Shown here in pieces: positions 9,319 through 64,000 of a stretch of 64,000 nucleotides of DNA. This stretch comes from Acidimicrobiales bacterium (GTDB lineage Bacteria; Actinomycetota; Acidimicrobiia; Acidimicrobiales; RAAP-2). The notes below the pieces were generated by a model. That model made no database searches. It saw nothing but the letters and a program-made list of their open reading frames with translations, and was not told the origin of the DNA. Within the stretch, counting starts at the first letter, position 1, and each line of letters starts with the position of its first letter. A program made the translations under genes and the position numbers. The DNA is taken from positions 2,640 to 66,639 of the forward strand of contig DATLSH010000079.1 of the NCBI GenBank assembly GCA_035534235.1, read 5' to 3'.

Positions 9319-9322
9319 GGAA

Positions 9323-13195: not shown

Positions 13196-13423
13196 GGCGA
13201 GTCACCAGCCTGCCACTGAAGGTCACCTTTGCCGCTCGGTCCGCTCTCATCGCAATGTGGAACTTAGGACGTTTCGTGCCCCCACAGCACTGGCCTCCCT
13301 ACGGGCAGGATTGATATCGTCCTTCGTTCCGCACTTTCCCGCCGACAATTCTGATTGGGGCCCCATGCACAGGTTCGGCGAATGCAGCCAGGTGGCCGAC
13401 GGTAGATTCATGGGACGACCTGC

Positions 13424-14188: not shown

Positions 14189-14197
14189 GGAGTGCAG

Positions 14198-15277
14198 TCA
14201 GGGTGCCGATACGTCGGAAACTGCAGTCCCGCTCTTGAACGAGAGCGGAGCCATCCTCTCGATCTCCGCTTCCGTGAATGTTGCTTTCACAATGGTCGCG
14301 GAGGGTACGCAGCGTTCGAGCCCGCTGATCAGGTTGTCCATCTCATGCTGGCCATAAAGCGGCAGGAGCACCAACACGTCCCCTCGCCACTGCACGATCG
14401 GCACGGTGGGTCCCAGGAGCGAGCGAGCTCTCTCGATGGTCGGGTTGATCCCCTTAGTAGACCGGACCACCACCGCATGGACGTGCTGGGTGTCTTGGTG
14501 CTCGCTCCGGATCCGGAGCAGATCGGTCACCATGGACCAGGGATCCGCCAGCGGCCGGATGCGACTCCCGCCGACCTGGACCCACCGGACCGGCACCTCC
14601 GCCACCCGGAGTCCCAGGCGTACAGCCCGGTCCAACACTTCCACGTCGAAGGCAAACCGGTCGATCGCCGAGTAATGGAAGAGAATACGAGCCACCGGAG
14701 TGCGGTACGCCTTGAACCCGCACTGGGTATCACTGAAGGGCAGGCCGATGAGCGCCCGGACAATCCCCGTGAAGGCCCGACCGCTGACCACCCGGAAGAA
14801 TGTGTCGGCTTCGGTGATCGAATCGGGAAGTGAACGTGAACCGATGGCCACGTCCGTTTCCTTGAGCGCAGTGAGGAGCAATGAGAGCTGTGACGGATGG
14901 ACTGCCATGTCGGCATCCATGAGAGCGGTCACCGCTCCGCGTGCCTGGGCCACGCCCGCCCGGATAGCGGCACCCTTGCCTCGGTTCTCGACGAGCCCGA
15001 TGACCCGGGAGCCCGGAACTGTCCTCAGGAGATTCCGGGCCCTTTCGGCCGTGTCGTCCGTGCTTCCATCATCCACCACAATGATCTCAATCGACTGTGA
15101 ACCTAGTTCCCCCCGCGCCATGGAGCTCACAAGCGTGTCCAGACCGATGGCTATCCGCTTCCCTTCGTTGAAGGCCGGAATGACGATGGTGAGCTTAACT
15201 TCATTCAGTTCTGAATCGCTCCGAAAGGCTTGATCGGCCAAACTCACACAACTCGCCCCATCTCGCCGTGTCTCCAT
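14198..15277 (-). CDS. GT2 glycosyltransferase (dolichyl/polyprenyl-phosphate hexose synthase-like) with C-terminal extension
   Basis: KLTIVIPAFNEG...IIVVDDGSTDDT...GKGAAIRAGV...MDADM. The start is set at ATG 15277 because the longer track ORF (to 15556) runs through tRNA-Pro. Confidence 0.8.
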   Translation of the reverse strand: METRRDGASCVSLADQAFRSDSELNEVKLTIVIPAFNEGKRIAIGLDTLVSSMARGELGSQSIEIIVVDDGSTDDTAERARNLLRTVPGSRVIGLVENRGKGAAIRAGVAQARGAVTALMDADMAVHPSQLSLLLTALKETDVAIGSRSLPDSITEADTFFRVVSGRAFTGIVRALIGLPFSDTQCGFKAYRTPVARILFHYSAIDRFAFDVEVLDRAVRLGLRVAEVPVRWVQVGGSRIRPLADPWSMVTDLLRIRSEHQDTQHVHAVVVRSTKGINPTIERARSLLGPTVPIVQWRGDVLVLLPLYGQHEMDNLISGLERCVPSATIVKATFTEAEIERMAPLSFKSGTAVSDVSAP

Positions 15278-15339
15278 CCCATCCACATCACCCCCATGGC
15301 CGACTATCCCCCGGCACGAACGCCGGCTACCGCATCCGG

Positions 15340-15414
15340 TCGGGCTGCCGGGATTTGAACCCGGGACCTCTTGACCCCCAGTCAAGCGCGCTAACCAAGC
15401 TGCGCCACAGCCCG
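15340..15414 (-). tRNA. tRNA-Pro (anticodon GGG)
   Basis: The reverse complement folds as a cloverleaf: acceptor CGGGCTG/CAGCCCG, D stem GCGC/GCGC, anticodon stem CTTGA/TCAAG with loop CTGGGGG, and T arm CCGGG-TTCAAAT-CCCGG. It is 75 nt, has discriminator A, and CCA is not encoded. Confidence 0.9.
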
Positions 15415-15562: not shown

Positions 15563-16654
15563 TTATGAGCTTCGGCGAAGGCCCTGATGCAATCCGGTGA
15601 CCCTGTCGATCAGGCGCCGTTCTCCCGGATTGAAGATCTGGTAACGGCCGCCACCGCCGCGTTTAGCCTGGTACATGGCGACGTCCGCATCGTGCAAGAG
15701 GTCGTCTGAGACGACAGTGGCGCTTTCGGCCAAGGCGATTCCGATGCTGGCGCGAGCTTCCACGTTCCCTATCGACAGACTGATCGTCTTGCCAAGTGTG
15801 CTGATCACGCGGGCGGCAATTAGCTCCGCCTCGGACCTGTCCTTAAGGTCTGGGCAGAGAATGACGAACTCGTCACCGGCCAGGCGGGCCAGGGTGTCGC
15901 CCGGCCGCATGAGCCTCTTGAGGCGTCCGGTGATGGATACCAGTAGCTCATCGCCGATCCGGTGCCCGTGCGCGTCATTGATCATCTTGAAATTGTCGAG
16001 ATCGAAGTACAGTATGCAGATCAGGCCGCTCGCAAGCCGATGGCGAGCCAGCACCTTGTCCAGGGATTCGAACAGCAGTGTCCGATTGGCCAGACCGGTC
16101 AGCGGGTCGTGCAGGGCGCTCTCGCGTGATCGCTCCAACGAGCTCTGCAGGTCGGCCCGGGTGGCAGCGTTGAGCAGGTAGGCCGCTGTCACGTCGGCCA
16201 ACGTCTGGGCTGCCTTCGTGGTTGCAGGGTCCAGCAACCCGGGGGCATTGCGATACAGCGCGAGCGCACCCATCCGGTTGTCACCGGCGCGCAGCGGGAA
16301 TGCGAAGGCGGCAGCCAAGCCCTCCTCCTGCAGCCTGTGCGTGAACCTCGGGAACCGGTCATCCCGACCCAGATCCGGCACTGCGACGGCTTTGCCGGTC
16401 TGATAGGCGACAAGGCAGGGACCTTGGCCGAGATTGTTCTGCAGGCACTCGAACTTCAACGCCAGACCGCTCGATGCCGCGACGTAGCGCGGACCGCCAC
16501 CCATGCCGATCAGGGTCACCGCAGCCGCCGTGATCGGAGCTACCTCCACGATGCGTGCGACCAGGCGATCCAGGATCTCCTGGATCGGCACATCAGTCAT
16601 CATGGTGCGGGCGAACTCGCTCAGAACGTCTGCGAGTCTCTCATCACTCTCCAC
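15563..16654 (-). CDS. GAF domain diguanylate cyclase (GGDEF, AGDEF variant)
   Basis: An N-terminal GAF domain is followed by HDPLTGLANRTLL...YFDLDNFKMINDAHGHRIGDELL...RPGDTLARLAGDEFVIL, with an RxxD I-site 5 residues before AGDEF. Confidence 0.85.
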   Translation of the reverse strand: MESDERLADVLSEFARTMMTDVPIQEILDRLVARIVEVAPITAAAVTLIGMGGGPRYVAASSGLALKFECLQNNLGQGPCLVAYQTGKAVAVPDLGRDDRFPRFTHRLQEEGLAAAFAFPLRAGDNRMGALALYRNAPGLLDPATTKAAQTLADVTAAYLLNAATRADLQSSLERSRESALHDPLTGLANRTLLFESLDKVLARHRLASGLICILYFDLDNFKMINDAHGHRIGDELLVSITGRLKRLMRPGDTLARLAGDEFVILCPDLKDRSEAELIAARVISTLGKTISLSIGNVEARASIGIALAESATVVSDDLLHDADVAMYQAKRGGGGRYQIFNPGERRLIDRVTGLHQGLRRSS

Positions 16655-17059
16655 TTCGACACCCCCAACACAGCCCGGTTCAAATGCACCGCGGGGTCAG
16701 GGCGGGAGGAAACATTTTCCGCAAGACCAATTTACCCGGTAGCGGGTGGAAAGAGAAGGGGACATCTGCGATCCTGGCGAGGGGGCCGGCTGGGCTTGGA
16801 CGGGAGGGAATGGGGGCGGGGTGGCCCCGTGACTTCCTGATGGATACCCCGGCCCCGATGAAAAGGGGTCCCATCGGAGGGTGGCGCTGCGGGGGTGATT
16901 GCGGCGCTGTACCGTGATGGTGGGTTCCACCAACTGGACCCGGATGAGCGTTGGCCCGGTCCCCTCCGGCGCACTTCCTTCGTGGATGGGAGAGTGTCCG
17001 TGCACCATCGGGTCCGAAGCGAAGGCGCTGCCCGCTCGACGAGTGCACCCCGAGCCTGA

Positions 17060-17755
17060 ATGTCAGCGGACCGTCTCAATCGCATCACTGCACGACTGGA
17101 GTCGGAGGGCGGTGAGGTGGGGAAACCCGCCCGCCTATGCCGGGTGGCCAAGGAGATCATCCGTGTTGACGGCGCAGGGGTCATGCTCATGTCCGGCGCT
17201 GTGCCCCAGGGTTCGCTGTGCTCCTCGAACAACGTCAGCAACCTGCTGGAGGAACTGCAGTACACCCTCGGCGAGGGCCCTTGTGTCGATGCTTACCAAC
17301 AGGATCGAGTCGTTCTTGAGCCGGATCTGGCCAATCCGGTCACGCCCCGATGGTTTGCCTTCACCCCGCGTGCGCTCGAAGCGGGCGTGGGTTCGGTGTT
17401 CGGATTCCCGTTGCGGTCCGGCACAGCCCGGTTGGGTGCCTTGAACCTCTACATGGATCGACCGGGCTCCCTCAGCGACGACCAGCATGCTGACGCCACT
17501 TTGATGGCTGATGTCATCACAGATCAGGTGCTCAATGGGCAGGCCGATGCCGTACAAGGAATGGCGGCCGGGGATCTCGAACTCAGTTCCAACTTCCAAT
17601 TCGTCGTGCACAATGCGGCGGGCATGGTGTCCGTGCAACTGGGAGTCAGCGTCACGGACGCGCTCATCCGCCTCCGTGCCCGTGCCTTCAGTGACAACCG
17701 GCTGGTCAGAGAGGTCGCCGAGGACGTTGTGGCACGAAGATTAAGCTTCTTGTGA
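17060..17755 (+). CDS. GAF-ANTAR RNA-binding antiterminator-type regulator
   Basis: The GAF domain contains LQYTLGEGPCVDAY...GALNLY. The C-terminal ANTAR domain reads VVHNAAGMVSVQLGVSVTDALIRLRARAFSDNRLVREVAEDVV. Confidence 0.85.
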   Translation: MSADRLNRITARLESEGGEVGKPARLCRVAKEIIRVDGAGVMLMSGAVPQGSLCSSNNVSNLLEELQYTLGEGPCVDAYQQDRVVLEPDLANPVTPRWFAFTPRALEAGVGSVFGFPLRSGTARLGALNLYMDRPGSLSDDQHADATLMADVITDQVLNGQADAVQGMAAGDLELSSNFQFVVHNAAGMVSVQLGVSVTDALIRLRARAFSDNRLVREVAEDVVARRLSFL

Positions 17756-18540
17756 GTCCCGGTCACGGGAAGCACCGGGGCTCACCGGGAGGCACGGTGG
17801 AGAAATCCCGAGATCACGCAATCGTTCGGTCTCTGGTCGAAATGGCCGACAACCTGGTGGACAATTTCGATGTGGTCGATCTCCTGACCGGATTGACTGA
17901 CCGTTGCGTGCGGGTGCTCGGGGTGTCCGCCGCCGGCGTCATGCTGGCCCAGGAATCCGCTGAGCTGCGGCTGGTGGCGTCCTCCAGCGAAACGATGCAG
18001 GTGGTGGAGCTCTTCGAGCTGCAGGCGGATGAGGGGCCCTGCCTCGAAGCCTTCCGTACCGGGGAGCGCGTCAGTCACGAGAACCTCCGCTCCGGTTCGG
18101 GTCGCTGGCCACGCTTCTCCGTCATTGCGCTCGAGGCCGGGTTCAAGTCGGTCTTCGCCCTTCCTCTACGACTACGTGAGAGGACGATCGGCGCGCTGAA
18201 CCTCTTCAGCATTGAGGAGGACCCCATGGACGAGCGTGATGTGATGGTGGCTCGTGGCTTTGCTGATCTGGCCACCATCAGTGTGCTCCAGCATGGTGCC
18301 GCCGCCGAGGCACAGCGGGTAAGCGAACAACTGACCCACGCCTTGACGAGCCGCATCGTGATCGAACAGGCCAAGGGGGTGGTCTCCGAACGCGCCAGGA
18401 TTGACATGACCCAAGCCTTCGATCGACTGCGTAGTTTCGCCCGCAGCCACCATCTGCGGCTGACCGATGTCGCCCAGAGCGCGATCGACGGGACCCTTGA
18501 TCCGAGCGTCTGGGTGCCGACGTCACCAGCCCCCGATTGA
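17752..18540 (+). CDS. GAF-ANTAR RNA-binding antiterminator-type regulator (second copy)
   Basis: The GAF domain contains ELQADEGPCLEAF...GALNLF. The ANTAR domain reads LTSRIVIEQAKGVVSERARIDMTQAFDRLRSFARSHHLRLTDVAQ. The start overlaps the upstream stop (GTGA). Confidence 0.85.
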   Translation: MSPGHGKHRGSPGGTVEKSRDHAIVRSLVEMADNLVDNFDVVDLLTGLTDRCVRVLGVSAAGVMLAQESAELRLVASSSETMQVVELFELQADEGPCLEAFRTGERVSHENLRSGSGRWPRFSVIALEAGFKSVFALPLRLRERTIGALNLFSIEEDPMDERDVMVARGFADLATISVLQHGAAAEAQRVSEQLTHALTSRIVIEQAKGVVSERARIDMTQAFDRLRSFARSHHLRLTDVAQSAIDGTLDPSVWVPTSPAPD

Positions 18541-18672
18541 CCCGCGACAGCATCGATACCTGAGGAGTTCGATGGACCGGACGCCGGTCAGTGGGGTAAG
18601 TTCCGGTGGCACCAATTGATCACCCCGGCGCGGTTCGGGGCGAGGCACCATGTGGCAGGGCGGGGAGGTCTG

Positions 18673-18819
18673 GTGACGGAAGAGCCGGCAGCAGAATTTG
18701 CCACCATCCGTGGCGATTTCCGGCCGGCCGAGGACGTGGACCATGTGGCCACTTGCGGCTGGCCCTACGAGACCCCGTGCCCCCGCTGCTACCCTTCCGC
18801 TTCCGCAGCCGAGGGATAG
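18673..18819 (+). CDS. hypothetical 48-aa Cys-containing peptide upstream of the kinase gene
   Basis: GTG 18673 is preceded by GGGGAGG at 4-nt spacing. The product is MTEEPAAEFATIRGDFRPAEDVDHVATCGWPYETPCPRCYPSASAAEG. Its stop lies 4 nt before the kinase ATG. I recognise no homologue. Confidence 0.3.
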   Translation: MTEEPAAEFATIRGDFRPAEDVDHVATCGWPYETPCPRCYPSASAAEG

Positions 18820-18823
18820 GCCG

Positions 18824-19966
18824 ATGCCCGACCACGAGATTGAGGATGCCACCACGGTGCGCCGGGCACTCGATGCCGCGCTCGTCATTGTGGCCGATCT
18901 CGATCTGCCGGCATTGCTGCGTCACGTCGTGAGTGAGGCTCGCAAACTGACGGGCGCCCGCTACGGTGCGCTGGGGGTTCTCAATGACGAAGGAACCGCT
19001 CTGGCCGAGTTCATCACCGTCGGGCTCACCGCTGACGAGGAGAAGCGGATCGGCCCTAATCCGACCGGACTGGGTGTGCTCGGCGTGGTCATTGCCAACC
19101 CGGCACCGCTCAGGTTGGCCCATCTTGACGCGCATGCTCAGAGCGTCGGCTTCCCGGTGCACCACCCCGCCATGACCTCGTTCCTCGGTGTGCCTATCCG
19201 GGTCAGGGGCACGGTATACGGCAATCTCTACCTGACCGACAAGGTGGGATCGCCTGAGTTCAGCGACGACGACGAGGCAGTCGTGGGCGCCATTGCCGTG
19301 ACGGCGGGCATCGCCATTGAGAACACCCGACTCCATGACCAGATTCAAGAAGTGGCTGCCTTCAAGGAACGAGAGGGATTCGCCAAGGAACAGCGCGACA
19401 CGGTGATGCGGCGCATCCATGAAGCCGGGATCAAGCTCGACGCCATTTCGGCCGAGATCGGCACCGGCACCCTGTCCGACCAGCTGCAGGATGTGATCTT
19501 CGAGATCGACGGCGCCATCCGTCAACTTCGTTCCACCAACCTCGACGTGGGGCTGATCAGGTTGAAGCGGCGGGTACGCGAGCGCCTTCTCTCTCTCCTG
19601 GTCGATCTCCGGATGGTCAGAGGGTTCGACATCCACGCCACCTTCGAAGGACCGGTCGACTCCCGAATTTCCGACCAGCTCGCCGCGCAGCTCCTGGCCA
19701 TCGTCCGCGAGGCGGTCATCAATATCGGATACCACTCCCGTGCAACCGAGGCCGAGATACTGCTCACCGTGGTGGACGAACAGTGCCAGCTGCGCGTCAG
19801 CGACAACGGCCGCGACATGAGTGCAGCCCAAAGAGAGCAGGAGGGCCGCGGTCTGGACAATCTCCGCCGTCGAGCCGAGAAACTCCAGGGCGACCTCACC
19901 ATTGAGAATCCCGCGCGAGGAGGGACGGTCCTGACGTGGACGGTTCCGCTGGACTGCTTCGACTGA
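18824..19966 (+). CDS. GAF sensor histidine kinase homologue (HisKA_3/HATPase_c) lacking the H-box histidine
   Basis: ATG 18824 follows GAGGGA. The GAF domain contains GALGVLNDEG...GNLYLTDK. The DHp region EREGFAKEQRDTVMRRIHEAG aligns to the ERERIARDLHDxVIQRLF consensus with R at the His position. The ATPase region reads SDNGRDM...GRGLDNLRRRAEKLQG. Confidence 0.8.
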   Translation: MPDHEIEDATTVRRALDAALVIVADLDLPALLRHVVSEARKLTGARYGALGVLNDEGTALAEFITVGLTADEEKRIGPNPTGLGVLGVVIANPAPLRLAHLDAHAQSVGFPVHHPAMTSFLGVPIRVRGTVYGNLYLTDKVGSPEFSDDDEAVVGAIAVTAGIAIENTRLHDQIQEVAAFKEREGFAKEQRDTVMRRIHEAGIKLDAISAEIGTGTLSDQLQDVIFEIDGAIRQLRSTNLDVGLIRLKRRVRERLLSLLVDLRMVRGFDIHATFEGPVDSRISDQLAAQLLAIVREAVINIGYHSRATEAEILLTVVDEQCQLRVSDNGRDMSAAQREQEGRGLDNLRRRAEKLQGDLTIENPARGGTVLTWTVPLDCFD

Positions 19967-54529: not shown

Positions 54530-55204
54530 TTACGGCAAGATCTCTTGGATTATGACCCGTCCGGTTATCTCATCCGGGTGGATGGCAATAATGGCGTGAC
54601 GGTCACCGCCGGCCCAGGGCTCGAGGTCGAGTGAGGCCAGTCGGAGCAATTCGTCGGGATCGTCAATGCGTCGGACCCGGCCGGTGACGAGCACACTCCA
54701 GCCCTCACTCATGGCATCGTCCACCTGATCGATCTCGAATCCGACCACGGGTTGGGCCTCAAGCTCCGCGGCGCCGATCACGGTGGTGCTGACGATGACG
54801 TCGCTCCCGGTGAATCTGAAGTTGACCGGATGTGCCTCCGGGCCTCTTTTCGACATGAAGGCAAGCCGGCCCACTCCCCCGGCACTCAAATGCGCCTCGC
54901 ATTGCGCGGGGGTGAGAGCTTCGAGCTGGGGGTGGCGCCCGGCCCTCCCCCGTCCAGGAGGCCGGTCCACACGCCCACCTTCCAAGGCATTGGGAGTCGT
55001 CTGCAGGGCCAGGGCCAGCAGGAACATCGTCCCGGCGCTCAGCCGGACCCCCGAACTCTGCTCGAAATAACCTAGGTACCCCGGGTCGATCCCGGCTCCG
55101 TGCGCGACCTCTTCAATGCTCAGGCCCAGCTCCATGCGGCGATGGGCGACTCTGCGGGACAAGTCGCCTTGGTGGGGAAGGTGGGGGTCTGCGGCTTGGG
55201 TCAT
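54530..55204 (-). CDS. XRE-type HTH fused to pyridoxamine 5'-phosphate oxidase-like (FMN/F420 split-barrel) domain
   Basis: RRMELGLSIEEVAHGAGIDPGYLGYFE is the HTH. GVGRLAFMSKRGPEAHPVNFRF...GWSVLVTGRV is the PPOX-like barrel. Confidence 0.7.
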   Translation of the reverse strand: MTQAADPHLPHQGDLSRRVAHRRMELGLSIEEVAHGAGIDPGYLGYFEQSSGVRLSAGTMFLLALALQTTPNALEGGRVDRPPGRGRAGRHPQLEALTPAQCEAHLSAGGVGRLAFMSKRGPEAHPVNFRFTGSDVIVSTTVIGAAELEAQPVVGFEIDQVDDAMSEGWSVLVTGRVRRIDDPDELLRLASLDLEPWAGGDRHAIIAIHPDEITGRVIIQEILP

Positions 55205-55269: not shown

Positions 55270-55989
55270 TCAGATTGAGAACGACGTGTCCGGGTTGATC
55301 CACGGTCGACGGTCCACCGCGGCTCCGTCGTCTTGAAAGTAGTCCCAGTCAAGTTGCGGCGTTCGCCAGTCTCCATACATGCACTCAAGTTCTCGTTCGT
55401 GGTCGGCGTGCCGGAGCCAGGTCCGGCCGAGGAATTCGAAGGGCACGAGCTCTTGGTCAGGCAGTTGCGCTTCAATTTCGACGAGGTGATCCGGTGGCCA
55501 GCCGTACGCGTAATACCGCAGCATGCCGTCCACGGGCTCCATGACGAAGAAGTCGAAATTCGTGTTGTGCCGGCGGAAGGTCATCTCGGTCACTTGACCC
55601 TTGTTGTTCCGGAACTGCTGGTGTATCTGAAAACCCACTCGCCGCAGTTCGGGTGCTGCACGCAGGAGTCGCGGGAGGTCTTCTGCGAGCAGAGCGAAGT
55701 CGGCATCACGATCGTGGGCAAGCAACTTCCCCTCACGGGCCCAACCAAGCAGCATGCCCGACCAGACCCAGTACCGCCCGGCAAGCTCGGTATCGGCAAG
55801 CAGGTCGTGGAGTTCCAGAAGATCGCGCACGAGGTGGCCGACGAACAGCCGATTGCTCACGCGTTGAAGTGCTCGACCCAGCACCGGAAGCTCCAACAGG
55901 TGCCTGGCTCCCACCTTCCTTAGCCACTTCATCGGCCGTCGAAGAGAGAACACGAACGGCTTCCTCGCGTGGGTCCCTGCTACCGACAT
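55270..55989 (-). CDS. LicD family (phospho-headgroup) transferase
   Basis: YWVWSGMLLGWAREGKLLAHDRDADFAL resembles the LicD/fukutin G-x-LLG-x-R...D-x-D core. Confidence 0.65.
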   Translation of the reverse strand: MSVAGTHARKPFVFSLRRPMKWLRKVGARHLLELPVLGRALQRVSNRLFVGHLVRDLLELHDLLADTELAGRYWVWSGMLLGWAREGKLLAHDRDADFALLAEDLPRLLRAAPELRRVGFQIHQQFRNNKGQVTEMTFRRHNTNFDFFVMEPVDGMLRYYAYGWPPDHLVEIEAQLPDQELVPFEFLGRTWLRHADHERELECMYGDWRTPQLDWDYFQDDGAAVDRRPWINPDTSFSI

Positions 55990-56232
55990 GCTCCAGTTTC
56001 CCCCTGGGCCGGCCGACGATTGTCGCAGTAGCTATGCACAGCCACCCTTTGAGCTAGCTGTCGAATGTCGGACAAGTGTGGGTATTGCCGCGCGTCGCGC
56101 GTCGCAAGGAACACCGCTGCAGCCTACCCTCATGATTCAGGCCCGAGTGATGGCTCACTACCGATCCTTCCGAGAGTGTCGTGCACACAAGTCAACCGAC
56201 TGTTGCGAACCGAGCCGGCGTATGATCCTTGC

Positions 56233-56931
56233 ATGCCGAGTGCAGACCCAGAAGACTTCAGCGCGGTACCACGAAGTCACGCGTGGCATGAGGTGTGGGA
56301 CCGGCGCGATCCCGAGAAGCTCAAGTACGACGGCTACGAGACCGGATTGAACAGCGACGAGGATCTGGTGCGGTTGCGGACCGCCCAGGTGGCATTCATT
56401 TCCTCCACGCTCAACCTCGGCTCGGCTGATCATCTGCTAGATCTCGGCTGTGGGACCGGGGTGCTCACCCGACAGTTGGCACCTCTTGTGCGAAGGGTCA
56501 CGGCGGTCGATTACTCGCTTGACGCCGTCGCATTGGCGCGCGACACAATGAAATCATGCAGCACGGTCGAGCTGCACTGCTCAGACCTGGTGACGTTTGA
56601 CTTGGGCTCTGTACCGGTTACCAAGGCGGTTGCCGTTGGCTCCATGCATTACCTGGACAGTTACGCCGTGCTGCACACTCTCCTCACTAGCTTCACCCGC
56701 CGGGGGGTGCCCGTCCTTGTGATGGACCTGCCAGACCAAGCGTACGCGAGCGGGGCGAGGCGCGAGTACGACCAGTCGCGCTGGTCCCACCTGGCGGTTG
56801 ACACCGAGCGGATACGAGCCGACTTCCCGAGCAGCAGGGTGCACCGGGGGATGTTCCCTTGGTATGCCAACGACGCGATGCGCTTCTCCATCTTGATCTC
56901 GCCGAGCCCCAGCTTGACGACCAACTCTTGA
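56233..56931 (+). CDS. class I SAM-dependent methyltransferase
   Basis: LLDLGCGTGVLTRQLAPLVRRVTAVDYSLDAV (motif I plus acidic loop). The track ORF begins at 56065. ATG 56233 is chosen as the more compact start. Confidence 0.7.
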   Translation: MPSADPEDFSAVPRSHAWHEVWDRRDPEKLKYDGYETGLNSDEDLVRLRTAQVAFISSTLNLGSADHLLDLGCGTGVLTRQLAPLVRRVTAVDYSLDAVALARDTMKSCSTVELHCSDLVTFDLGSVPVTKAVAVGSMHYLDSYAVLHTLLTSFTRRGVPVLVMDLPDQAYASGARREYDQSRWSHLAVDTERIRADFPSSRVHRGMFPWYANDAMRFSILISPSPSLTTNS

Positions 56932-56974
56932 ACGCCTGATCCCACAGTGCCAGTGCACTCCGGAGCCCTCGGCC

Positions 56975-57403
56975 TCAGGAACTCGCGGCCTCCTCTTCGA
57001 TCCGCTGGCGTAGCCTGACCAGCAGCTCCGTAGTGGACACGCCAGGGGTATAAGGGACCGTCCGGTAGATCCCCATCTCCATTGCGACGGCGTAGTATTT
57101 CGCCGCCGTGTGGTCATCAAAATCGTCTCCGTGTACGACGAGGTCAATTCGGTGGGTCTTCAACCAGTCCTGATTGACCGCAAGGGGGGCATTGGCCACC
57201 ACTTCGTCGACATAGCGGCACCCGGCCACAACTGCCATCCGTTCCGTCATGGTCATGAGAGGTCGTCTCTTGTAGGACTCGACGGCATCATCGGTGTGGA
57301 TCCCAACCACCAGCGCGTCCCCGAGGGACTTCGCCTTGCGCAGAAACTCCACATGGCCAGGGTGGAAGAGATCCGCCACCATGTCAACATACACACGGGT
57401 CAT
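56975..57403 (-). CDS. HxGH cytidylyltransferase, CCT/ECT-like (predicted CTP:aminoethylphosphonate cytidylyltransferase)
   Basis: VYVDMVADLFHPGHVEFLRKAK...VVGIHTDD...CRYVDEVV...RTVPYTPGVSTTELL closely follows the phosphocholine/phosphoethanolamine cytidylyltransferase pattern. Confidence 0.8.
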   Translation of the reverse strand: MTRVYVDMVADLFHPGHVEFLRKAKSLGDALVVGIHTDDAVESYKRRPLMTMTERMAVVAGCRYVDEVVANAPLAVNQDWLKTHRIDLVVHGDDFDDHTAAKYYAVAMEMGIYRTVPYTPGVSTTELLVRLRQRIEEEAASS

Positions 57404-58428
57404 GATGCGAGAACGTGGAAGAGGTTTTCAATCACTTCTTCGTCCATGGCCGCTCCCATGTTCGCCACACGAAAGATCTCGGTGCGCAACTCGTTCTGAC
57501 CATGATAGATGACGTATCCGTACTTGAGAGCCTGGGCAAACAGTGTGTCGGGGTCACGTCCCTCAAGCCTGAACGACGTCAAGACCCATGAGCGGAGTGA
57601 TTCCTCAAGCAGTGGCTCGAAGTGACGGGATCCGGCGGTCCACACGGCACGGACCAACCTGTGATAGCGGGCCGGTCGGTCCTCCGACTCAAGGATGTCG
57701 AGGGCGACATCGAGGCCGATCATGGCCTGGATGTTTGGAGTGCTCGGGATCCCATCGGCATACGCGGGCACATTGAGCACCGGCACGGTGGGATACGAGC
57801 GCAGTTCGCGCTTCCAAAGCACTCCAGCGATTCCCGGCAGCGACTCCAGGCACTTATTGCTGTTGAAGCAGACCACATCGACACTCCGGTCGACCTCGTG
57901 CACGCCGAGCGAACTGACGGCATCGACAAAGAGTCGTACACCATGTCGCCGGCAGAGTTGCGCCACAGCCGCGAGCGGATTCAAAATACCGGTTGTCGTC
58001 TCGTGGTGGACCATCGCTACCCAGTCGGGCTCACGGGCCTCCATGTCCTCTTCCAAGGCCTTGAGGTCCAAGGGTGCCCCGACAGGAACAGAGGACGCCC
58101 AAGCCTCGGCACCTTCGAGCGTGGAAAGGGTCCGTACCATTCGTTGGCAATAGAGGCCGTTGTCCGCCACCAACACCCTGCCCCGGACGAAGGACGCAAG
58201 ACCCGCATCAACGGCGAGGCTGCCCGACCCATGCAGCAGACTGAGTGCAACTTGCCCTGAGTCGAGACCCAGATGAGACAGGATCCTCGCACGCACCCGA
58301 TCCTGGAGCTCCTCGAATTCTGGTTGGCGATGGCAAAGCTCTACATTGAACAGGTTCTCTTTGATACGAGGATCGAGATTGACCGGACCCGGATTAAAGA
58401 GGATCTGCTGGCGAGACGTCAGCGGCAT
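57400..58428 (-). CDS. phnW: class V aminotransferase, 2-aminoethylphosphonate:pyruvate transaminase-like
   Basis: ILFNPGPVNLDPRIK...HHETTTGILNP...VDAVSSLG...FNSNKCLESLPG, with the PLP Lys in the NK context. Confidence 0.75.
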   Translation of the reverse strand: MPLTSRQQILFNPGPVNLDPRIKENLFNVELCHRQPEFEELQDRVRARILSHLGLDSGQVALSLLHGSGSLAVDAGLASFVRGRVLVADNGLYCQRMVRTLSTLEGAEAWASSVPVGAPLDLKALEEDMEAREPDWVAMVHHETTTGILNPLAAVAQLCRRHGVRLFVDAVSSLGVHEVDRSVDVVCFNSNKCLESLPGIAGVLWKRELRSYPTVPVLNVPAYADGIPSTPNIQAMIGLDVALDILESEDRPARYHRLVRAVWTAGSRHFEPLLEESLRSWVLTSFRLEGRDPDTLFAQALKYGYVIYHGQNELRTEIFRVANMGAAMDEEVIENLFHVLAS

Positions 58429-58443
58429 TTCGTTCTCAGCGTT

Positions 58444-58929
58444 CTACCGCGTAGAGCGATCGTGGGTGTCGCCCAATGCGTCCCTGATGCGGTCACTGTT
58501 TGCCTCGACTGTCAAGCTCACCCGGGGCGGTCTTCCGTCCCGGGTGATCTTCACCACTTCCGTCACGCCGGGATAGGACTCCTCCAGCACGGCGCACGGT
58601 TGGCCACCCACCGACTCATGACACCCGTTGTCGAGAACGTAGTGAAAGAGGTTGGTGAGTGCGCTCTCTCGCACGGTATGCGTAGTGCCCAGACTCATCA
58701 GCAAGGACGCATCGCCATTGATTACCACGACGTCACACGAAGCATTGAGCGCCATTCCTAAACCGATAGCAGGAGCCAGGCCCATGCTGCCTTGCATGTA
58801 GAACACATTGTAACCACCGCCGGCTTCAGCGAACACCGCTCGACTGATGTATCCGGTGGACGCGACGTAGACGGCGTCATGCCCGTGCCGACCCAGGATC
58901 TCTCGAATCGCCTGGTCCCTGCCCTTCAT
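58444..58929 (-). CDS. phosphonopyruvate/sulfopyruvate decarboxylase, beta (TPP-binding) subunit
   Basis: GSMGLAPAIGLGMAL...VVVINGDASLLMSLGT...VLDNGCHES is the TPP GDG-x-N motif region. Confidence 0.8.
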   Translation of the reverse strand: MKGRDQAIREILGRHGHDAVYVASTGYISRAVFAEAGGGYNVFYMQGSMGLAPAIGLGMALNASCDVVVINGDASLLMSLGTTHTVRESALTNLFHYVLDNGCHESVGGQPCAVLEESYPGVTEVVKITRDGRPPRVSLTVEANSDRIRDALGDTHDRSTR

Positions 58930-58959
58930 GGGCGACCTGGCGAGAGAGCGCGTCTTGGT

Positions 58960-59373
58960 TCACCCCTCATTGTTCTCCCCGGCAACCAGAATGTAGTTGT
59001 GCCAACCCAACAACTCGAGCAATGAGCGGTCGATCTCACCCATGACTCGGTGCTGAGGGAGGGTGTGACGGTGCCCCACCACCATGAGCAAGTCAATTCC
59101 GTACGGGATACACAGGGTGGCCAATGGGTTGACGGTATGTCCCAATCCCGCGTTCTGAAGGTACACACACGGTCTTGCCCCGGCTAACGAAGCTCCGGCA
59201 GCGATGCCCATCGCTTCCGCCTCCCACGTCGCCGTGATATGTCGGTCTGCCGGCAGCCCGGCCAAATCAGAAATGAACTCTTTCAGACCGCTGTCGGGCA
59301 CGCCCGTGAAGAAGTCATACCCGTCGGCCAAGAGGCTGTCCAGCAGCCCCTTATCGGACGTAACGATCCTCAT
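58960..59373 (-). CDS. phosphonopyruvate/sulfopyruvate decarboxylase, alpha subunit
   Basis: DFFTGVPDSGLKEF...EAEAMGIAAGASLAGARPCVYLQNAGLG is the TPP_enzyme_N-type pyrimidine-binding region. It overlaps the pepM-like stop by 23 nt. Confidence 0.8.
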   Translation of the reverse strand: MRIVTSDKGLLDSLLADGYDFFTGVPDSGLKEFISDLAGLPADRHITATWEAEAMGIAAGASLAGARPCVYLQNAGLGHTVNPLATLCIPYGIDLLMVVGHRHTLPQHRVMGEIDRSLLELLGWHNYILVAGENNEG

Positions 59374-60235
59374 TCGCCTTCAATTCGTCCACGTAAATGA
59401 TTCGGAAGATCTCATCCATACTGACAACATTGCTGTTCCCATCGGCCAGCCGCTTCTTTTCCATCAGCATGCCAAACGTGTCTTGAAGGGCCTTGGCGAT
59501 AGCTCGGATCCCGTAATTCGCGAAAATGATAAGTTTGAATCCGGCGCCGTCCAGGGCCTCGTAACTGACGGTGTTGTACGTCGTCGGAACGCACACCAAC
59601 GGTGCCGTCTCGCTCCGGTACCATTTCTCAGCAAACTCCAGAACGGGTCCGGGATCCCCTTCCTTGTGATGAATCAGGATCCCTTCTGCTCCTTCGGCTG
59701 CATACTCCCGAGCCCGGTCGAGTGCAACCTTTAGGCCTAAGCCCTTGATAAGCGCCTCGGTACGAGCAATAACCGCGAACTGAGTATCTGTCCTCTGCTC
59801 CAATGCTGCTCGTAGCTTGCCGCAGAACGTGCTCGAGTTCTCAATCTCCTCTTGCATGCCGGCATAGAAGGAACATCTTTTCGGGAAGACGTTGTCTTCA
59901 ATGCACATCCCACTCCCACCCGCCTTCTCAAATTCCCTGACGAGCCGGATCGTGTTGATTGCGTTACCTCCGCCGGCGTTACCGTCAACAAGAACCGGGA
60001 TCTTTACCCGGTCGACGATTTTGGAGACGACGTCTACGTAGTCCTGAGTGCCCAGGATGTCGGCGTCCGGAAGCCGTGCGGCCGCATGGACCTCGAAGCT
60101 GGAAACCCAGAGCCCATCTGCTCCGGCCTCCTCCGCAATTTTGGCTCCCATCGCGTTGTGAACGCCCATCAGAACAGCGGCATGATCTCCATGGAGAAGT
60201 TGAAGAACTGTCTTGTCAGGGAAGATCATTTCCAC
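59351..60235 (-). CDS. ICL/PEP-mutase superfamily enzyme, probable divergent phosphoenolpyruvate mutase
   Basis: GVHNAMGAKIAEEAGADGLWVSS...LPDADIL...PVLVDGNAGGGNAIN...GMCIEDNVFPKRCSF. It is the first gene of the operon with decarboxylase and aminotransferase. The canonical EDKxxxxxNS signature is not conserved. Confidence 0.65.
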   Translation of the reverse strand: MEMIFPDKTVLQLLHGDHAAVLMGVHNAMGAKIAEEAGADGLWVSSFEVHAAARLPDADILGTQDYVDVVSKIVDRVKIPVLVDGNAGGGNAINTIRLVREFEKAGGSGMCIEDNVFPKRCSFYAGMQEEIENSSTFCGKLRAALEQRTDTQFAVIARTEALIKGLGLKVALDRAREYAAEGAEGILIHHKEGDPGPVLEFAEKWYRSETAPLVCVPTTYNTVSYEALDGAGFKLIIFANYGIRAIAKALQDTFGMLMEKKRLADGNSNVVSMDEIFRIIYVDELKANEDRYVR

Positions 60236-60510: not shown

Positions 60511-60945
60511 ATGCCCGACCCCCCAGAAAGGCAATCGGCACAGGCTCCCGCTCAGTCCAACTCCGATATTGTCCGTGAAATCACCGGAGCTCTGGCCCGA
60601 GGCGACTTGCTGGTGGTGATGAGCAAGCTGTCAAAGGACATCCGGTGGGCCGTGAATGCAGCCGATCGCGAAAGTGCACCCTGGTTCCGGGTCTACGAGG
60701 GCCGCAAGAACTTGCCGGACTTCTTTTCCGAGCTGGCCAAAGTCGAGTTCTCGGATTTCACCCTCAAGGCAGTAGCCAGTGATGGTGATGTCGTGATCAC
60801 GTGGCTCCACGTGGCCTTCACCGGCCCATCAGGTCGCTCGGTCGACATGGAAGAGACCCAGATTTGGCGATTCGAAAATGGCAAGGTGCGTTCCGTCGAC
60901 ACGTTGCTCGACACCGCTGCCGTGGCCGCCGTATTCGGGCCGTAG
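60511..60945 (+). CDS. NTF2-like / SnoaL-like small protein
   Basis: 144 aa with an alpha+beta cone-type pattern (...ITWLHVAFTGPSGRSVDMEETQIWRFENGKVRSV...). Confidence 0.55.
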   Translation: MPDPPERQSAQAPAQSNSDIVREITGALARGDLLVVMSKLSKDIRWAVNAADRESAPWFRVYEGRKNLPDFFSELAKVEFSDFTLKAVASDGDVVITWLHVAFTGPSGRSVDMEETQIWRFENGKVRSVDTLLDTAAVAAVFGP

Positions 60946-60959
60946 GCTGCCGCCGCCTC

Positions 60960-62729
60960 TCAACCCTTCGGGAATGCGGCGCCGTATTCATTGAGGAGAT
61001 GCTCGGTGAGCAGCTCGGACGCCAGTATGCGGCCGTGCCACTCGAACAATGAGTGTTCCAGGCCAGGGATCATGACCATCCGGAATTGCGGTTGCCGCTG
61101 CAGCCGGCGCATGGTCCGTCCTTCACCCCGTTTGAGAAGATGAGTTTCGTTCTCGCCGGCGATCACGAATATGTTGACACCGGCATCAATCACCTTGGAC
61201 AGGGTGCGCGCCGGCGGCGACTCCACGGCTATCCGGTTGATGATCCACCAGGCGGGACCGGGCAGGCCTTCGACAAAGGGGCCCAGCTTGTCGTGAGCCG
61301 GCAGTGCTCGAGCCCAGCGCTTCGTGGCCCCAGAGGCCTGCCGACGGCTATCGAGCGTTCCGCTCTGAAGCTCGGGAGGTGCCTTCGAACTCACCTCCGG
61401 TGGTTTGAACGTGAGGATCGGATTCACCACCAGCAGGCCGCGCACATGGCCGGCAATAGCTCCCTCAACAGCATGGTAGGCACCTGAGCAGAGCCCGACG
61501 AGGATGGCGTTTGACGGATCGTCGGGCGATGCGGCGTGGAGTACGTCGAGGATGTCGTCCAGCGCCTCGGGTGAATAGACAACGTGCGGGACCTGATCAA
61601 CTCGCATCGGACTGTCACCCACGCCGACCAGGTCGAAGCGGATGACACGGAAACCGGCTTCGGCCCAACGGCGAGCGAGCGTCACCCACAGGCGCGCCGG
61701 TCCGACGTGATCGATCTCTCCCGCGTTGAAGCAGAAGATCGTGGGCAATGCACCAGGGACCCCCAGCGCGTCCCGGCTCGCCTCATCGGCACTCAGAGTC
61801 ACAAGTCGTTGATCGGCGTCATGGCGGGTAGTCATGATTCCGAACAGGTTTCTACGGCCGAGCACAACCGGGCGTTCGTCTATGGACACACCGTCTGTGG
61901 TGGTGCCGACAACGGCCAGGTTTCGCCCTACGGTATCGCTTTCGATCTCCACCATTGGATCTGCAGCGGGTACAGTAGCCAGCCAATCTGCAATGGTCGC
62001 AATGGTCGCTTCGGGCATGATCGTCGCGTGAGGAAGAACATCGACAAGATCTTCCTGCCCGGCAATTGGCAAGCGCAACACATTTGGCATGTCGAGACGC
62101 TCGTTCATGCGCCGGTCGCCCTTGCGACTGGACCGCATGAGCAAAAGGACTCTGTCGGCGAGTGGTCCCTCCTGGTTGGCGATTGCCACGGCTGACAGGT
62201 CCGCCACCGTCTCCTTGTCGTAGACGAGCCCGGGTGTCTCAATTGCGCCATCGTCATGGGACTTGGTACCCAGAGCTACTGACCACAGCGCGCTCTGCCC
62301 CCGGAGGAACGCCCGCCCGGAAGCACAGGGGTCCCACAAGACAAGGTCGTCAATGACGGCGGGCCCTGATCCGAACGTCTCGGCACTGAGGGTTGCACCG
62401 ACACGCATGCCGACCACACCCAGTCGCCCGAGCCCCAGCCCCCGCATGAACTGCACCGCATGGCGAATGCTCGCCATCCACGCAGCGGTTCGCTCGGGAT
62501 CCTCGTGTCGGCCGGCCGAGTCGCCGGTTCCGTCGTAATCAAATCGCAAGGCCACAAGACCTGACTCGGCCAGTCGATCTGCCAAGAGCCTGAAGGCGAG
62601 ATGTGCACTCACCGCCTCAATACCCATAGTCGGGCAGAGCACCACGCCTCCACGGGCACTCCCGTCTTCCGGAACGTGCAGCCAACCGAACAGCGGGCGA
62701 TCCTCGGGGCCGAACCACAGCGACTTCAC
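60960..62729 (-). CDS. tandem alpha/beta-hydrolase-fold protein
   Basis: Domain 1 reads LFGWLHVPEDGSARGGVVLCPT...LRFDYDGTGDSAG with elbow GMRVG (no Ser). Domain 2 reads RFDLVGVGDSP...VGLCSGA (Cys at the nucleophile position). Confidence 0.7.
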   Translation of the reverse strand: MKSLWFGPEDRPLFGWLHVPEDGSARGGVVLCPTMGIEAVSAHLAFRLLADRLAESGLVALRFDYDGTGDSAGRHEDPERTAAWMASIRHAVQFMRGLGLGRLGVVGMRVGATLSAETFGSGPAVIDDLVLWDPCASGRAFLRGQSALWSVALGTKSHDDGAIETPGLVYDKETVADLSAVAIANQEGPLADRVLLLMRSSRKGDRRMNERLDMPNVLRLPIAGQEDLVDVLPHATIMPEATIATIADWLATVPAADPMVEIESDTVGRNLAVVGTTTDGVSIDERPVVLGRRNLFGIMTTRHDADQRLVTLSADEASRDALGVPGALPTIFCFNAGEIDHVGPARLWVTLARRWAEAGFRVIRFDLVGVGDSPMRVDQVPHVVYSPEALDDILDVLHAASPDDPSNAILVGLCSGAYHAVEGAIAGHVRGLLVVNPILTFKPPEVSSKAPPELQSGTLDSRRQASGATKRWARALPAHDKLGPFVEGLPGPAWWIINRIAVESPPARTLSKVIDAGVNIFVIAGENETHLLKRGEGRTMRRLQRQPQFRMVMIPGLEHSLFEWHGRILASELLTEHLLNEYGAAFPKG

Positions 62730-64000
62730 GCGGTCACCTCGGTACTTCCGGTGTTCGACGTGGCCGGTCCGGCACCTTCGGCCACGGCGATACTCACCGG
62801 ACTCTGCAAATTCAGGGCTCGGATCACCCCTATGGGCGGACGCTCATGGACATCTTCTCCGGATCGAACTCCGCCAGTCAGAGAGGCGGACCTTTCGGGA
62901 TGCAGGCGGACTACCCGGGTCCCGCCAGGTTCGAGGTGGAACCACGAATCACTGGGGCGCCAGCCCGGTGCGTCGATCGCTACCGACTGGGCGAAGCGGC
63001 GGGTCGCCACGTGGAGATCCCACGAGCCTGCCGCCGCCGGGTGCGCGTGAGCGGTGAGCCCCAAATGACCTTCTACTTGTCGACAAGGTCCACCGGGTAA
63101 CCAATGGACCTGACTGACGACTGTGGGATCGACCGCCGAGCGTTCGTCGGTTGAGGTCATATGTGCGGCACCCAACGCTAATGCTCCCTGCCCATCGGTC
63201 ATCAACGACACCGAGACGACATCGTAGGTCAAAGGCCCAAATCGATAGGCGTAACTGATGTCGCGGAAGCCATCGAATAGCGCCGTCGCTTCAATCTCGA
63301 TCCCTCCACGTGCCGGAATGACCACGATCTGCTGGCCGACTTCAGAGAGCAGCTCCCCCCGCTGATAGAGCGTCACCCGCACCGATCCGGTGAACTCCGC
63401 AGCGGTGTCGTTCAGAAGGTGGAGGCGGAGCCCATTGACTCCCTCGTCGGTCACCAGAACAGCAATCGGTGAGAAGACCCGCCTCAGTGCAAACCATGGG
63501 GCCTTGGGCCGGCCCAGCGCGTCAATGATCCCCCATCCCGGGCCGGGCATCAGGTCACGTAGGGCAATCAGCAGCCCCCCGGCACAGGGAGATCCTGGTC
63601 GGCGCCACTCGGAGAACACCCTGGCCATCACCTCGGCCACTGCGGCCCGCCCGAGATCGAGTGAACGCTCCGGGTTGAGGTGCCGCAGCATGTGCGCATC
63701 AATCCCGAACACCTGGTGCACATAGAACTCGCGTACATCTTCGAGGTCCAAAGCTCGCCCAGTGTCATGGTGCACTGATCGCTTCCACCCCGGGTCGTGC
63801 CCGGCACGGATCGCCCCACCGCATACCTCGTCCACCGTCTGTCGTTCGGGCGGTACCCCGAAGGCCAGCCCTTCGCTCATGAAACGCACGTTGGCGCGTC
63901 GGGCATCGTCAATTGGCCGAAGGAAGGTCCCGACTCCGAAGTAGTGGCTGACCCCGACATCGACGCGGAAGGGTAGGTCTCCCCCGGTGGGGCTCGACAC
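62726..64000 (-). CDS. glycoside hydrolase, GH2 (beta-mannosidase-like) C-terminal part; 5' end beyond the window
   Basis: RFMSEGLAFGVPP resembles the GH2 nucleophile block F-x-SE-x-G. Downstream beta-sandwich-like regions follow. The frame is open to base 64000, so the M in the track is an edge artefact. Confidence 0.55.
   Translation of the reverse strand: MSSPTGGDLPFRVDVGVSHYFGVGTFLRPIDDARRANVRFMSEGLAFGVPPERQTVDEVCGGAIRAGHDPGWKRSVHHDTGRALDLEDVREFYVHQVFGIDAHMLRHLNPERSLDLGRAAVAEVMARVFSEWRRPGSPCAGGLLIALRDLMPGPGWGIIDALGRPKAPWFALRRVFSPIAVLVTDEGVNGLRLHLLNDTAAEFTGSVRVTLYQRGELLSEVGQQIVVIPARGGIEIEATALFDGFRDISYAYRFGPLTYDVVSVSLMTDGQGALALGAAHMTSTDERSAVDPTVVSQVHWLPGGPCRQVEGHLGLTAHAHPAAAGSWDLHVATRRFAQSVAIDAPGWRPSDSWFHLEPGGTRVVRLHPERSASLTGGVRSGEDVHERPPIGVIRALNLQSPVSIAVAEGAGPATSNTGSTEVTA

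Follow-up and report, generated by a model that had tools for sequence, protein, structure and literature searches.

The closest described relatives of the locus reported here are the Pnt phosphonate clusters. In the survey of Rice et al. 2019 (PMC6697681), genes for phosphoenolpyruvate (PEP) mutase (Ppm, or PepM), phosphonopyruvate decarboxylase (Ppd), 2-aminoethylphosphonate (AEP) transaminase, and PntC share neighborhoods, with LicD-like phosphotransferases or glycosyltransferases nearby. In the same survey, 23.6% of the Ppm proteins are fused to PF01467 cytidylyltransferases, and the actinobacteria Atopobium rimae and Olsenella uli have AEP neighborhoods with "LicD-like phosphotransferases" (PMC6697681). 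That study, Li and Horsman 2022, Acker 2022, and a December 2025 actinomycete survey use the motif EDKX5NS as the defining test for PepM, and estimates based on this motif put phosphonate producers at ~5% of bacterial genomes and 15% of surface-ocean bacterioplankton. Here we describe a gene cluster at positions 55270 to 60235 of a 64,000-nucleotide stretch of DNA (the window, part of a 75-kb contig) from a metagenome-assembled genome (MAG) of an Acidimicrobiales bacterium. Within 5 kb, the cluster is predicted to encode all of the Pnt functions (a carbon-phosphorus [C-P]-forming enzyme, Ppd, AEP transaminase, a nucleotidyltransferase, and a transferase), and the C-P-forming enzyme is noncanonical. 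The first-pass annotation of this DNA knew of no characterized example of the gene combination, but it is already present in the neighborhoods of Rice et al. and follows Pnt logic. The pathway design is not new, being of the ordinary Pnt type; what is new is that the PepM slot is held by a subfamily that lacks the signature motif.

We favor, with a probability of roughly 0.65, the reading that this variant is a functional, noncanonical PEP mutase that feeds a pathway through AEP and its cytidine monophosphate (CMP)-activated form to a LicD-family transferase. The reading rests on the protein families, the operon structure, the conserved synteny, the selection acting on the mutase gene, and the active-site residues that it has kept.

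Results

A compact operon with a candidate AEP pathway

The cluster consists of five core genes and two adjoining ones, listed here in the order of the proposed pathway steps of the core, followed by the neighbors.

59351-60235, minus strand: PEP-mutase-like enzyme, 294 amino acids (aa); Pfam PEP_mutase PF13714 147 bits, E = 9e-43; the NCBI start lies 2 codons later
58960-59373, minus strand: alpha subunit of a thiamine diphosphate (TPP) decarboxylase (ppdA), 137 aa; TPP_enzyme_N 26.7 bits, just under the cut-off of 26.8
58444-58929, minus strand: beta subunit of the TPP decarboxylase (ppdB), 161 aa; TPP_enzyme_C 37 bits
57400-58428, minus strand: class-V aminotransferase, AEP-transaminase-like, 342 aa; Aminotran_5 39 bits
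56975-57403, minus strand: HxGH cytidylyltransferase, 142 aa; CTP_transf_like PF01467 71.7 bits against a cut-off of 21; motif FHPGH
56065-56931, plus strand: class-I S-adenosylmethionine (SAM) methyltransferase, 288 aa; Methyltransf_25 44 bits, NodS 35 bits
55270-55989, minus strand: phosphotransferase of predicted LicD/FKRP fold, 239 aa, start uncertain; LicD PF04991 25.6 bits against a cut-off of 22.6

All seven open reading frames (ORFs) of the first-pass annotation are present where it had placed them, apart from one start: the methyltransferase does lie beside the core, but the proposed start at 56233 is an internal Met of the ORF at 56065-56931 (232 aa from there). NCBI annotates the seven genes as HVB92653 to HVB92659, the last of the window proteins HVB92642 to HVB92659. 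Profile searches agreed with the families first proposed, matching PEP_mutase, TPP_enzyme_C, Aminotran_5, CTP_transf_like, and LicD, with TPP_enzyme_N at the borderline score given above, and the host had been correctly called a high-G+C actinobacterium. The description of the core as five co-directional, tightly packed minus-strand genes also stands, since all are overlapping or at most 30 bp apart: the mutase gene and ppdA overlap by 23 bp, ppdA and ppdB are separated by 30 bp, ppdB and the aminotransferase gene by 15 bp, and the aminotransferase stop overlaps the cytidylyltransferase start by 4 bp. The methyltransferase gene lies on the plus strand, convergent with the cytidylyltransferase gene and divergent from the LicD gene, and LicD is therefore not part of the five-gene core transcript.

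In the pathway that we infer, with its catalytic activities, phosphonate product, acceptor, and methyltransferase role, (i) the mutase homolog would convert PEP to phosphonopyruvate, (ii) the two-subunit TPP decarboxylase would pull this unfavorable equilibrium forward by converting phosphonopyruvate to phosphonoacetaldehyde, (iii) the class-V aminotransferase would produce AEP, (iv) the HxGH cytidylyltransferase would activate AEP to CMP-AEP, (v) the separately transcribed LicD/FKRP-fold enzyme would pass the phosphonyl head group on to a hydroxyl group of a glycan at the cell surface, and (vi) the methyltransferase may N-methylate the head group. The order first suggested for this cluster, from C-P formation through decarboxylation, transamination, and CMP activation to LicD transfer, is in keeping with the way the operon is built, with the families of its proteins, and with the synteny conserved across loci.

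The mutase belongs to a conserved subfamily without the PepM signature

By its sequence, the mutase is not a canonical PepM but a member of a subfamily that is widespread, strongly conserved, and marked by the loop EDNx[FY]PK[RK]CS[FL]Y; we infer that this subfamily is a functional PEP mutase with a remodeled gating loop. Its loop reads EDNVFPKRCSFY where canonical PepM has EDK(L/R)FPK(T/V)NS, which corresponds to the changes K116N, T121R, N122C, and H125Y. Outside the loop, the canonical D(A/C)DTGYGN has become DGNAGGGN, WGSGL has become WVSSF, and ANH has become ANY. In PepM, the Mg2+ shell is formed by D58, D85, D87, and E114, and the phosphoryl group is bound by K120, N122, S123, R159, and H190; position 122 is the residue that most authors credit for the mutase/hydrolase difference between PepM and phosphonopyruvate hydrolase (PPH) (PMC7916636). 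The mutase keeps D58, D85, E114, K120, S123, R159, and H190, with Asn at position 87 and Cys at position 122. Its best NCBIfam model is TIGR02320 for PepM (243 bits), followed by those for PPH (174 bits) and PrpB (125 bits), and its closest solved relatives are the PepMs 5unc and 1m1b (E = 3e-65 and 2e-52 for the two), with the PPH structure 2dua third (E = 3e-49).

The 120 closest homologs (70 to 100% identity, mostly metagenomic) all share the motifs of the mutase. Distant relatives (40 to 47% identity; Polyangiaceae, Tepidisphaerales, and others) carry EDN[VI]FPKRCSFY, yet they keep DCDNG[FY]GN, WASGFE, and ANH. The loop motif is found in 120 of the 120 closest relatives of the Polyangiaceae protein, including those of cultured Sorangium strains and Minicystis rosea, and searching JGI metagenomes with the pattern EDNx[FY]PK[RK]C gave at least 598 matching stretches, at least 582 of them confirmed relatives.

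When 30 variant and 99 canonical sequences were aligned, D58, D85, E114, K120, S123, and R159 were invariant and H190 nearly so. Only 3 of the 284 alignment columns separate the variant from canonical PepMs (≥80% consensus in both), namely L48F, K116N, and N122C. These three and H125Y, which is invariant within the variant subfamily, are all active-site or gating-loop positions. The subfamily is under strong purifying selection: the ratio of nonsynonymous to synonymous substitution (dN/dS) of the mutase gene is 0.06 to 0.12, with synonymous codon changes at the loop Asn, Arg, Cys, and Tyr.

The variant occupies the PepM slot of phosphonate clusters

The five-gene order recurs in dozens of independent contigs at 53 to 87% protein identity, which is far beyond chance. 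For the counts that follow, only loci with room for the partner genes were used (in Acidimicrobiia-type loci, ≥1.2 kb downstream for Ppd and ≥4 kb for the aminotransferase and cytidylyltransferase); the neighborhoods of L037 to L053, which are of lower G+C, were assessed solely by tblastn with probe proteins. All 30 such loci of the Acidimicrobiia type have the Ppd halves after the mutase, and the 17 longer loci of this type have the class-V aminotransferase in 14 cases and the HxGH cytidylyltransferase in 16. Among the distant relatives, Ppd is present in 20/27 loci, some cytidylyltransferase in 17/18, and a CDP-alcohol phosphatidyltransferase in 8/18. The mutase in this group typically carries a fused NTP_transf_3 (PntC-like) domain, an arrangement also known from canonical Ppm-PntC fusions. 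In a complete Sorangium genome (L092), consecutive genes encode the mutase-NTP_transf_3 fusion, the split TPP decarboxylase, NTP_transf_3, and CDP-OH_P_transf. One example of the fusion gene in Sorangium cellulosum lies in CP150351.1. Such architectures have been published for canonical Ppm (PMC6697681).

Thus, the variant sits in the PepM slot of phosphonate clusters almost everywhere, and no second PepM-like gene was found in the window or beside the variant in any examined locus. Because the phosphonate context is uniform and the loci hold no second PepM-like gene, we favor C-P bond formation by the variant itself.

Two other arrangements were seen in the distant group. In four Polyangiaceae loci (L003, L004, L067, and L074), the mutase-NTP_transf_3 fusion is accompanied by a second NTP_transf_3 gene and a CDP-alcohol phosphatidyltransferase, and no decarboxylase gene separates them; in the Sorangium locus L092, the split decarboxylase takes that position. 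In a Tepidisphaerales MAG (L006:6040-8309), the only partner gene after the variant mutase encodes a class I/II aminotransferase, and this pair could make or break down phosphonoalanine.

Placement in the superfamily

A point-estimate neighbor-joining (NJ) tree was built from 153 sequences, with the petal death protein (sequence checked against the PDB) as the outgroup; the 200 bootstraps had methylisocitrate lyase (sequence also checked) as a second outgroup. In the point estimate, the Cys-loop sequences form a grade, with the verified PepMs (1m1b and 5unc) and PPH together in a clade that excludes them. The mutase fell outside this verified clade in only 61% of bootstraps with all columns and 51% with the loop removed, and a clan test of the variant grouping gave an unstable outcome. 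The root lay among non-EDK sequences in ~92% of replicates (NJ, two lyase outgroups). Outside the loop columns, the variant and canonical PepMs lie at almost the same distance from the lyases, the variant being only slightly nearer. Sequences with EDN..KRNS, which have Asn at position 122, are interleaved with the Cys forms.

The question raised by the first-pass annotation, whether the mutase clusters with non-PepM members, received a mixed answer: within the superfamily the protein groups on the PepM/PPH side, and the point-estimate tree puts it outside the verified clade, with 51 to 61% support only. On these alignments we treat the subfamily as distinct. We do not claim that it is the ancestral form, given the placement support of 51 to 61%, the unstable clan test, and the small likeness to lyases outside the loop.

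Partner enzymes of the variant

Both decarboxylase subunits resemble Ppd more than sulfopyruvate decarboxylase. ppdA matches TIGR03297 (Ppd) with 100.1 bits over profile positions 1 to 122 versus 69.8 bits for the alpha subunit ComD, and ppdB, which carries the thiamine diphosphate motif GDA-X25-DN, matches it with 101.4 bits over positions 172 to 287 versus 79.9 bits for the beta subunit ComE. The best solved relatives of the two halves are 9iz3_A and 9iz3_B, the alpha and beta chains of a "putative phosphonopyruvate decarboxylase" (E = 8e-10 and 3.6e-16). The aminotransferase keeps the pyridoxal phosphate (PLP) lysine (SNKC) and the C-terminal arginine of FRVANMG, and its PDB matches include PhnW (1m32, 9kk8, and 7e7g) and the AEPT domain of Treponema Tde1415 (6pd1).

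For the cytidylyltransferase, the PDB matches are human ethanolamine-phosphate cytidylyltransferase 3elb (the best, E = 1.8e-44), the Fom1 CyTase domain 5x3d (86.5 bits), and CCT; it shares the C-terminal motif PYTPG[VI]S[ST]T with Fom1 CyTase, and its own form, YTPGVSTT, resembles the family motif RTxGISTT. We propose that it is a CMP-AEP synthase of the ECT/CCT/Fom1-CyTase type. This type fits AEP, since Fom1 CyTase acts on a phosphonate and phosphoethanolamine is the phosphate ester analog of AEP.

The candidate transferase is named "LicD family protein" by NCBI and is hypothetical in most databases. To our knowledge, FKRP and fukutin are the only solved structures of the LicD fold. An alignment-based AlphaFold model of the window protein (predicted local distance difference test [pLDDT] score of 92.9) had FKRP chains as all of its 13 best Foldseek matches (E = 3e-8 to 1e-6, best probability 1.00, template modeling [TM] score of 0.5), and its DxD motif DRDAD aligns with DYDVD of FKRP. 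As modeled, the window transferase has the LicD/FKRP fold. Eight loci have LicD-family genes next to the operon, and these genes fall into two length classes. A natural fusion of the two activities (P0510, 338 aa, L093:8001-9785) is 56% and 52% identical to the window cytidylyltransferase and LicD, respectively. A literature search found no paper on a characterized CMP-AEP:glycan transferase, and the LicD transfer step is biochemically unproven in any system.

The methyltransferase is possibly an accessory N-methyltransferase: its best PDB matches, which are weak, are the N-methyltransferases NodS (3ofj) and CalS10. A homolog in a like position is seen at L019 (59% identity) and weakly at L044, that is, in one or two loci only. 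N-methylation of AEP toward a choline-like head group is speculation.

Evidence against the favored reading and alternative explanations

Several findings weigh against a functional PEP mutase feeding AEP synthesis. The mutase is without the PepM signature EDKX5NS (it reads EDNVFPKRCS), its TIGR02320 score of 243.1 bits is under the cut-off of 319.55, and NCBI declines the PepM call, naming the protein "isocitrate lyase/phosphoenolpyruvate mutase family protein." Reading the enzyme as an ordinary PepM is not supported, for the first two of these reasons, and PepM identity has to be argued from context. Position 122 is Cys, as in the C-C lyases of the superfamily at this loop position, and the Acidimicrobiia branch carries D87N in the Mg2+ shell, with T88A, Y90G, and the His-to-Tyr change in the ANH motif as further changes. 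The partner enzymes are also under their cut-offs: the summed scores of ppdA and ppdB do not reach 312.5 for TIGR03297, and the best aminotransferase model, TIGR03301 (PhnW-AepZ), gives 187.4 bits where 360.8 is required. With all NCBIfam equivalog scores below the cut-offs, the core enzymes are divergent members of their families and not textbook orthologs.

Some clusters are also incomplete. The aminotransferase is absent from L007, L016, and L019, where the mutase, ppdA, ppdB, and the cytidylyltransferase are followed by LicD or a methyltransferase, and Ppd is absent from the four Polyangiaceae loci L003, L004, L067, and L074. The product therefore need not always be AEP; at L007, L016, and L019 (the last with two cytidylyltransferase genes), the head group may be 2-hydroxyethylphosphonate or another compound. 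The fusion protein P0510 adjoins an APH/choline-kinase-family gene with no mutase nearby, so a cytidylyltransferase plus LicD is by itself no proof of a phosphonate. Finally, the PDB matches included no solved structure of a subfamily member, and the literature search found no paper on this subfamily or on a PepM without EDKX5NS.

Four other explanations for the cluster were weighed. The one that survives best, although we judge it unlikely, is that the EDN..KRCS enzyme has been neofunctionalized, does not perform the simple step from PEP to phosphonopyruvate, and leads to a head group other than plain AEP, whether by loop-Cys chemistry (through a phosphocysteine or as an acid/base), with another substrate, or toward another 3-substituted pyruvate. 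In the superfamily lyases, the loop Cys is the catalytic acid/base, and the variant Cys aligns with that of methylisocitrate lyase and the petal death protein. The positions of L48F, K116N, and N122C in the active site and the invariance of H125Y speak in the same direction, as do the subthreshold scores of Ppd, the aminotransferase, and the mutase, and hydrolysis by PPH is commonly ascribed to one substitution, Asn to Thr, at position 122 (PMC7916636). However, every context found is a standard phosphonate one (Ppd, AEP transaminase, cytidylyltransferase, LicD or CDP-alcohol transferase), the cytidylyltransferase needs a phosphate or phosphonate nucleophile for which there is no obvious precursor but PEP, the residues listed above as kept for Mg2+ and phosphoryl binding are intact, and the interleaved EDN..KRNS forms suggest that Cys and Asn are interchangeable at position 122. 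A further proposal, which we consider quite unlikely, is that the enzymes with the EDNx[FY]PK[RK]CS[FL]Y loop form C-P bonds by a mechanism of their own, may have branched off early, and keep the loop Cys of the lyases, which they may use in catalysis (for instance through a phosphocysteine or as an acid/base), or that they make a product other than phosphonopyruvate.

Less probable still is a phosphate ester head group (phosphoethanolamine or phosphocholine, Lic type), with the mutase, decarboxylase, and aminotransferase serving another purpose; we regard this as very unlikely. The best solved relative of the cytidylyltransferase is indeed an ethanolamine-phosphate cytidylyltransferase, and the fusion locus L093, with its kinase-family gene and no mutase, suggests a kinase-fed Lic-type version of the module. 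The cytidylyltransferase is, however, equally like the phosphonate-specific Fom1 CyTase domain, there is no kinase gene in or beside the window operon, the cytidylyltransferase gene starts before the aminotransferase gene has ended, and the five genes stay linked in dozens of loci. The cytidylyltransferase-LicD module thus appears to be shared between phosphate ester and phosphonate head groups. Because the module also occurs without a mutase, the AEP reading of the window rests on operon structure.

A catabolic role, in which a PPH-like mutase and a PhnW-type transaminase free phosphate from environmental phosphonates, seems highly improbable. PPH ranks third among the solved relatives of the mutase and second among its NCBIfam models, and the variant and class I/II aminotransferase of L006 resemble the PalB-PalA pair, PalAB being the arrangement for phosphonoalanine catabolism. 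In such a pathway, a decarboxylase producing phosphonoacetaldehyde would be superfluous, as would a cytidylyltransferase, LicD, and a CDP-alcohol phosphatidyltransferase, and no phosphonatase, transporter, or C-P lyase genes were found adjoining.

The least credible explanation is a carbon-arsenic (C-As) analog leading through arsonopyruvate to arsonoacetaldehyde, as cytidylyl anhydrides of arsonates would be hydrolytically unstable and ordinary soils and sediments hold too many members of the family. Although a mutase-decarboxylase pair has been proposed for C-As bond formation in a Streptomyces arseno-organic cluster, and the active-site loop Cys could suit arsenic chemistry, this reading was rejected because the published route needs an AroA-like arsenoenolpyruvate synthase and ars genes (PMC4943196), neither of which is present here.

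Surroundings and origin of the operon

Left of ~54.5 kb, the window holds housekeeping genes (CTP synthase, RecN, NAD kinase, 2-oxoacid dehydrogenase, and TreT) with a third-codon-position G+C content (GC3) of 0.82 to 0.92. In the operon and everything to its right, GC3 is 0.64 to 0.75, and the overall G+C content falls from ~0.69 to 0.58 to 0.61. In other MAGs the operon has unrelated surroundings. Because of the lowered GC3 and G+C and these unrelated surroundings, the operon was probably acquired horizontally by the Acidimicrobiales bacterium. Scans with Rfam and for tRNAs, promoters, and terminators gave nothing tied to the operon.

Regulatory genes lie near several copies of the cluster. 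At 54530-55204 of the window, a gene for an HTH-Pyridox_ox_2 protein adjoins LicD. At L005, L008, L012, L013, L014, and L069, regulators lie directly upstream of the mutase gene on the opposite strand (a GerE-type response regulator in six loci and a histidine kinase in five), which hints at signal-dependent control in those loci; the window copy has the HTH-Pyridox_ox_2 gene instead.

Upstream of the operon (60511-64000), the window has a divergent SnoaL-like gene and a gene for a 589-aa protein of two alpha/beta-hydrolase domains, which resemble "exosortase A system-associated" hydrolases 2 and 1. The overlapping contig L010:1-9700 continues with an 885-aa Glyco_hydro_2_N2 protein, DUF1839, an acyl-CoA dehydrogenase, a carrier protein, a phosphopantetheinyl transferase, and GT4. 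This upstream set is exopolysaccharide-like and shares the lowered G+C content of the operon.

A second lower-G+C stretch (0.615 to 0.665) with glycan-building genes is found at 6598-15414 and ends at tRNA-Pro(GGG) (15338-15414). It encodes three SAM methyltransferases (one FkbM-type), GT4, GT2, and a 1290-aa homolog of the AftD-like GT-C arabinofuranosyltransferases (PF11847, 647 bits). Located 40 kb from the operon, it could be another acquired island and a source of the glycan acceptor. It is followed at 15563-19966 by a signaling run of a GAF-GGDEF diguanylate cyclase, two GAF-ANTAR regulators of the RNA-binding antiterminator type, and a GAF histidine kinase.

Discussion

Significance of the variant

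Because they require EDKX5NS, the motif-filtered surveys (Rice, Li and Horsman, Acker, and the 2025 screen) would discard this clade. If the variant is active, phosphonate producers have been undercounted, especially in soils and sediments; the Acidimicrobiia and Polyangiaceae gain an unrecognized class of surface glycan or lipid decoration; and Lys116 and Asn122 are, contrary to the accepted view, not required for forming the C-P bond. Were the variant something other than a simple mutase, it would represent a new reaction in a well-studied superfamily. Should it be a distinct enzyme type, a large share of environmental phosphonate-like biosynthesis, in soil Acidimicrobiia, Polyangiaceae including Sorangium, and Planctomycetota, would run through a type that has never been studied or counted. 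We found no paper on phosphonates in Sorangium or Acidimicrobiia. The variant is present in Sorangium, which is culturable and genetically tractable.

Comparison with known systems

The window operon has the same gene set, step order, and CMP-AEP donor idea as the Pnt pathway (PMC6697681); in both, transfer to the glycan is a putative step. It differs in that the characterized PntC is a LicC-type PF12804 enzyme whereas the window cytidylyltransferase is a stand-alone HxGH PF01467 protein, in that all Ppm proteins of that study were required to have EDKXXXXXNS, which the window mutase lacks, and in that the window decarboxylase is split into two small subunits. An alpha/beta architecture is likewise seen in the split Ppd 9iz3/9iz4, to which the window subunits are distantly similar and than which they are shorter (137 and 161 versus 181 and 186 aa).

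With canonical PepM (Mytilus edulis 1m1b and Streptomyces 5unc), the variant shares the fold family, D58/D85/E114, K120/S123/R159/H190, and a Ppd partner; throughout the subfamily it differs by L48F, K116N, T121R, N122C, and H125Y. PPH (Variovorax PalA, 2dua) is a PepM-clade enzyme whose function was changed by a substitution at position 122. It shares Phe48 with the variant (WGSGF in PPH) but keeps EDK, has Thr at position 122, occurs in catabolic contexts, and nests inside the canonical clade in the NJ tree.

The logic of CMP activation and LicD transfer, along with a LicD-family transferase, is that of the Lic pathway (LicA, LicC, and LicD) of Streptococcus pneumoniae and Haemophilus influenzae. 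There, imported choline enters via a kinase, whereas PEP would be the starting point for de novo synthesis of the window head group, which would carry a C-P bond; the fold of LicC is GT-A-like, and the window cytidylyltransferase is of the HxGH type. The CyTase domain of Fom1 (5x3d) is an HxGH enzyme that acts on a phosphonate and is tied genetically to a PEP mutase, as we propose for the window cytidylyltransferase. In Fom1 it is fused to a canonical PepM and cytidylylates 2-hydroxyethylphosphonate transiently on the way to an antibiotic, not for surface decoration. The best structural match of the window transferase is with FKRP and fukutin, CDP-ribitol:ribitol-phosphate transferases of eukaryotes, which have an extra stem domain and use another donor and acceptor; over ~180 residues the proteins are 22 to 24% identical, and their DxD sites align.

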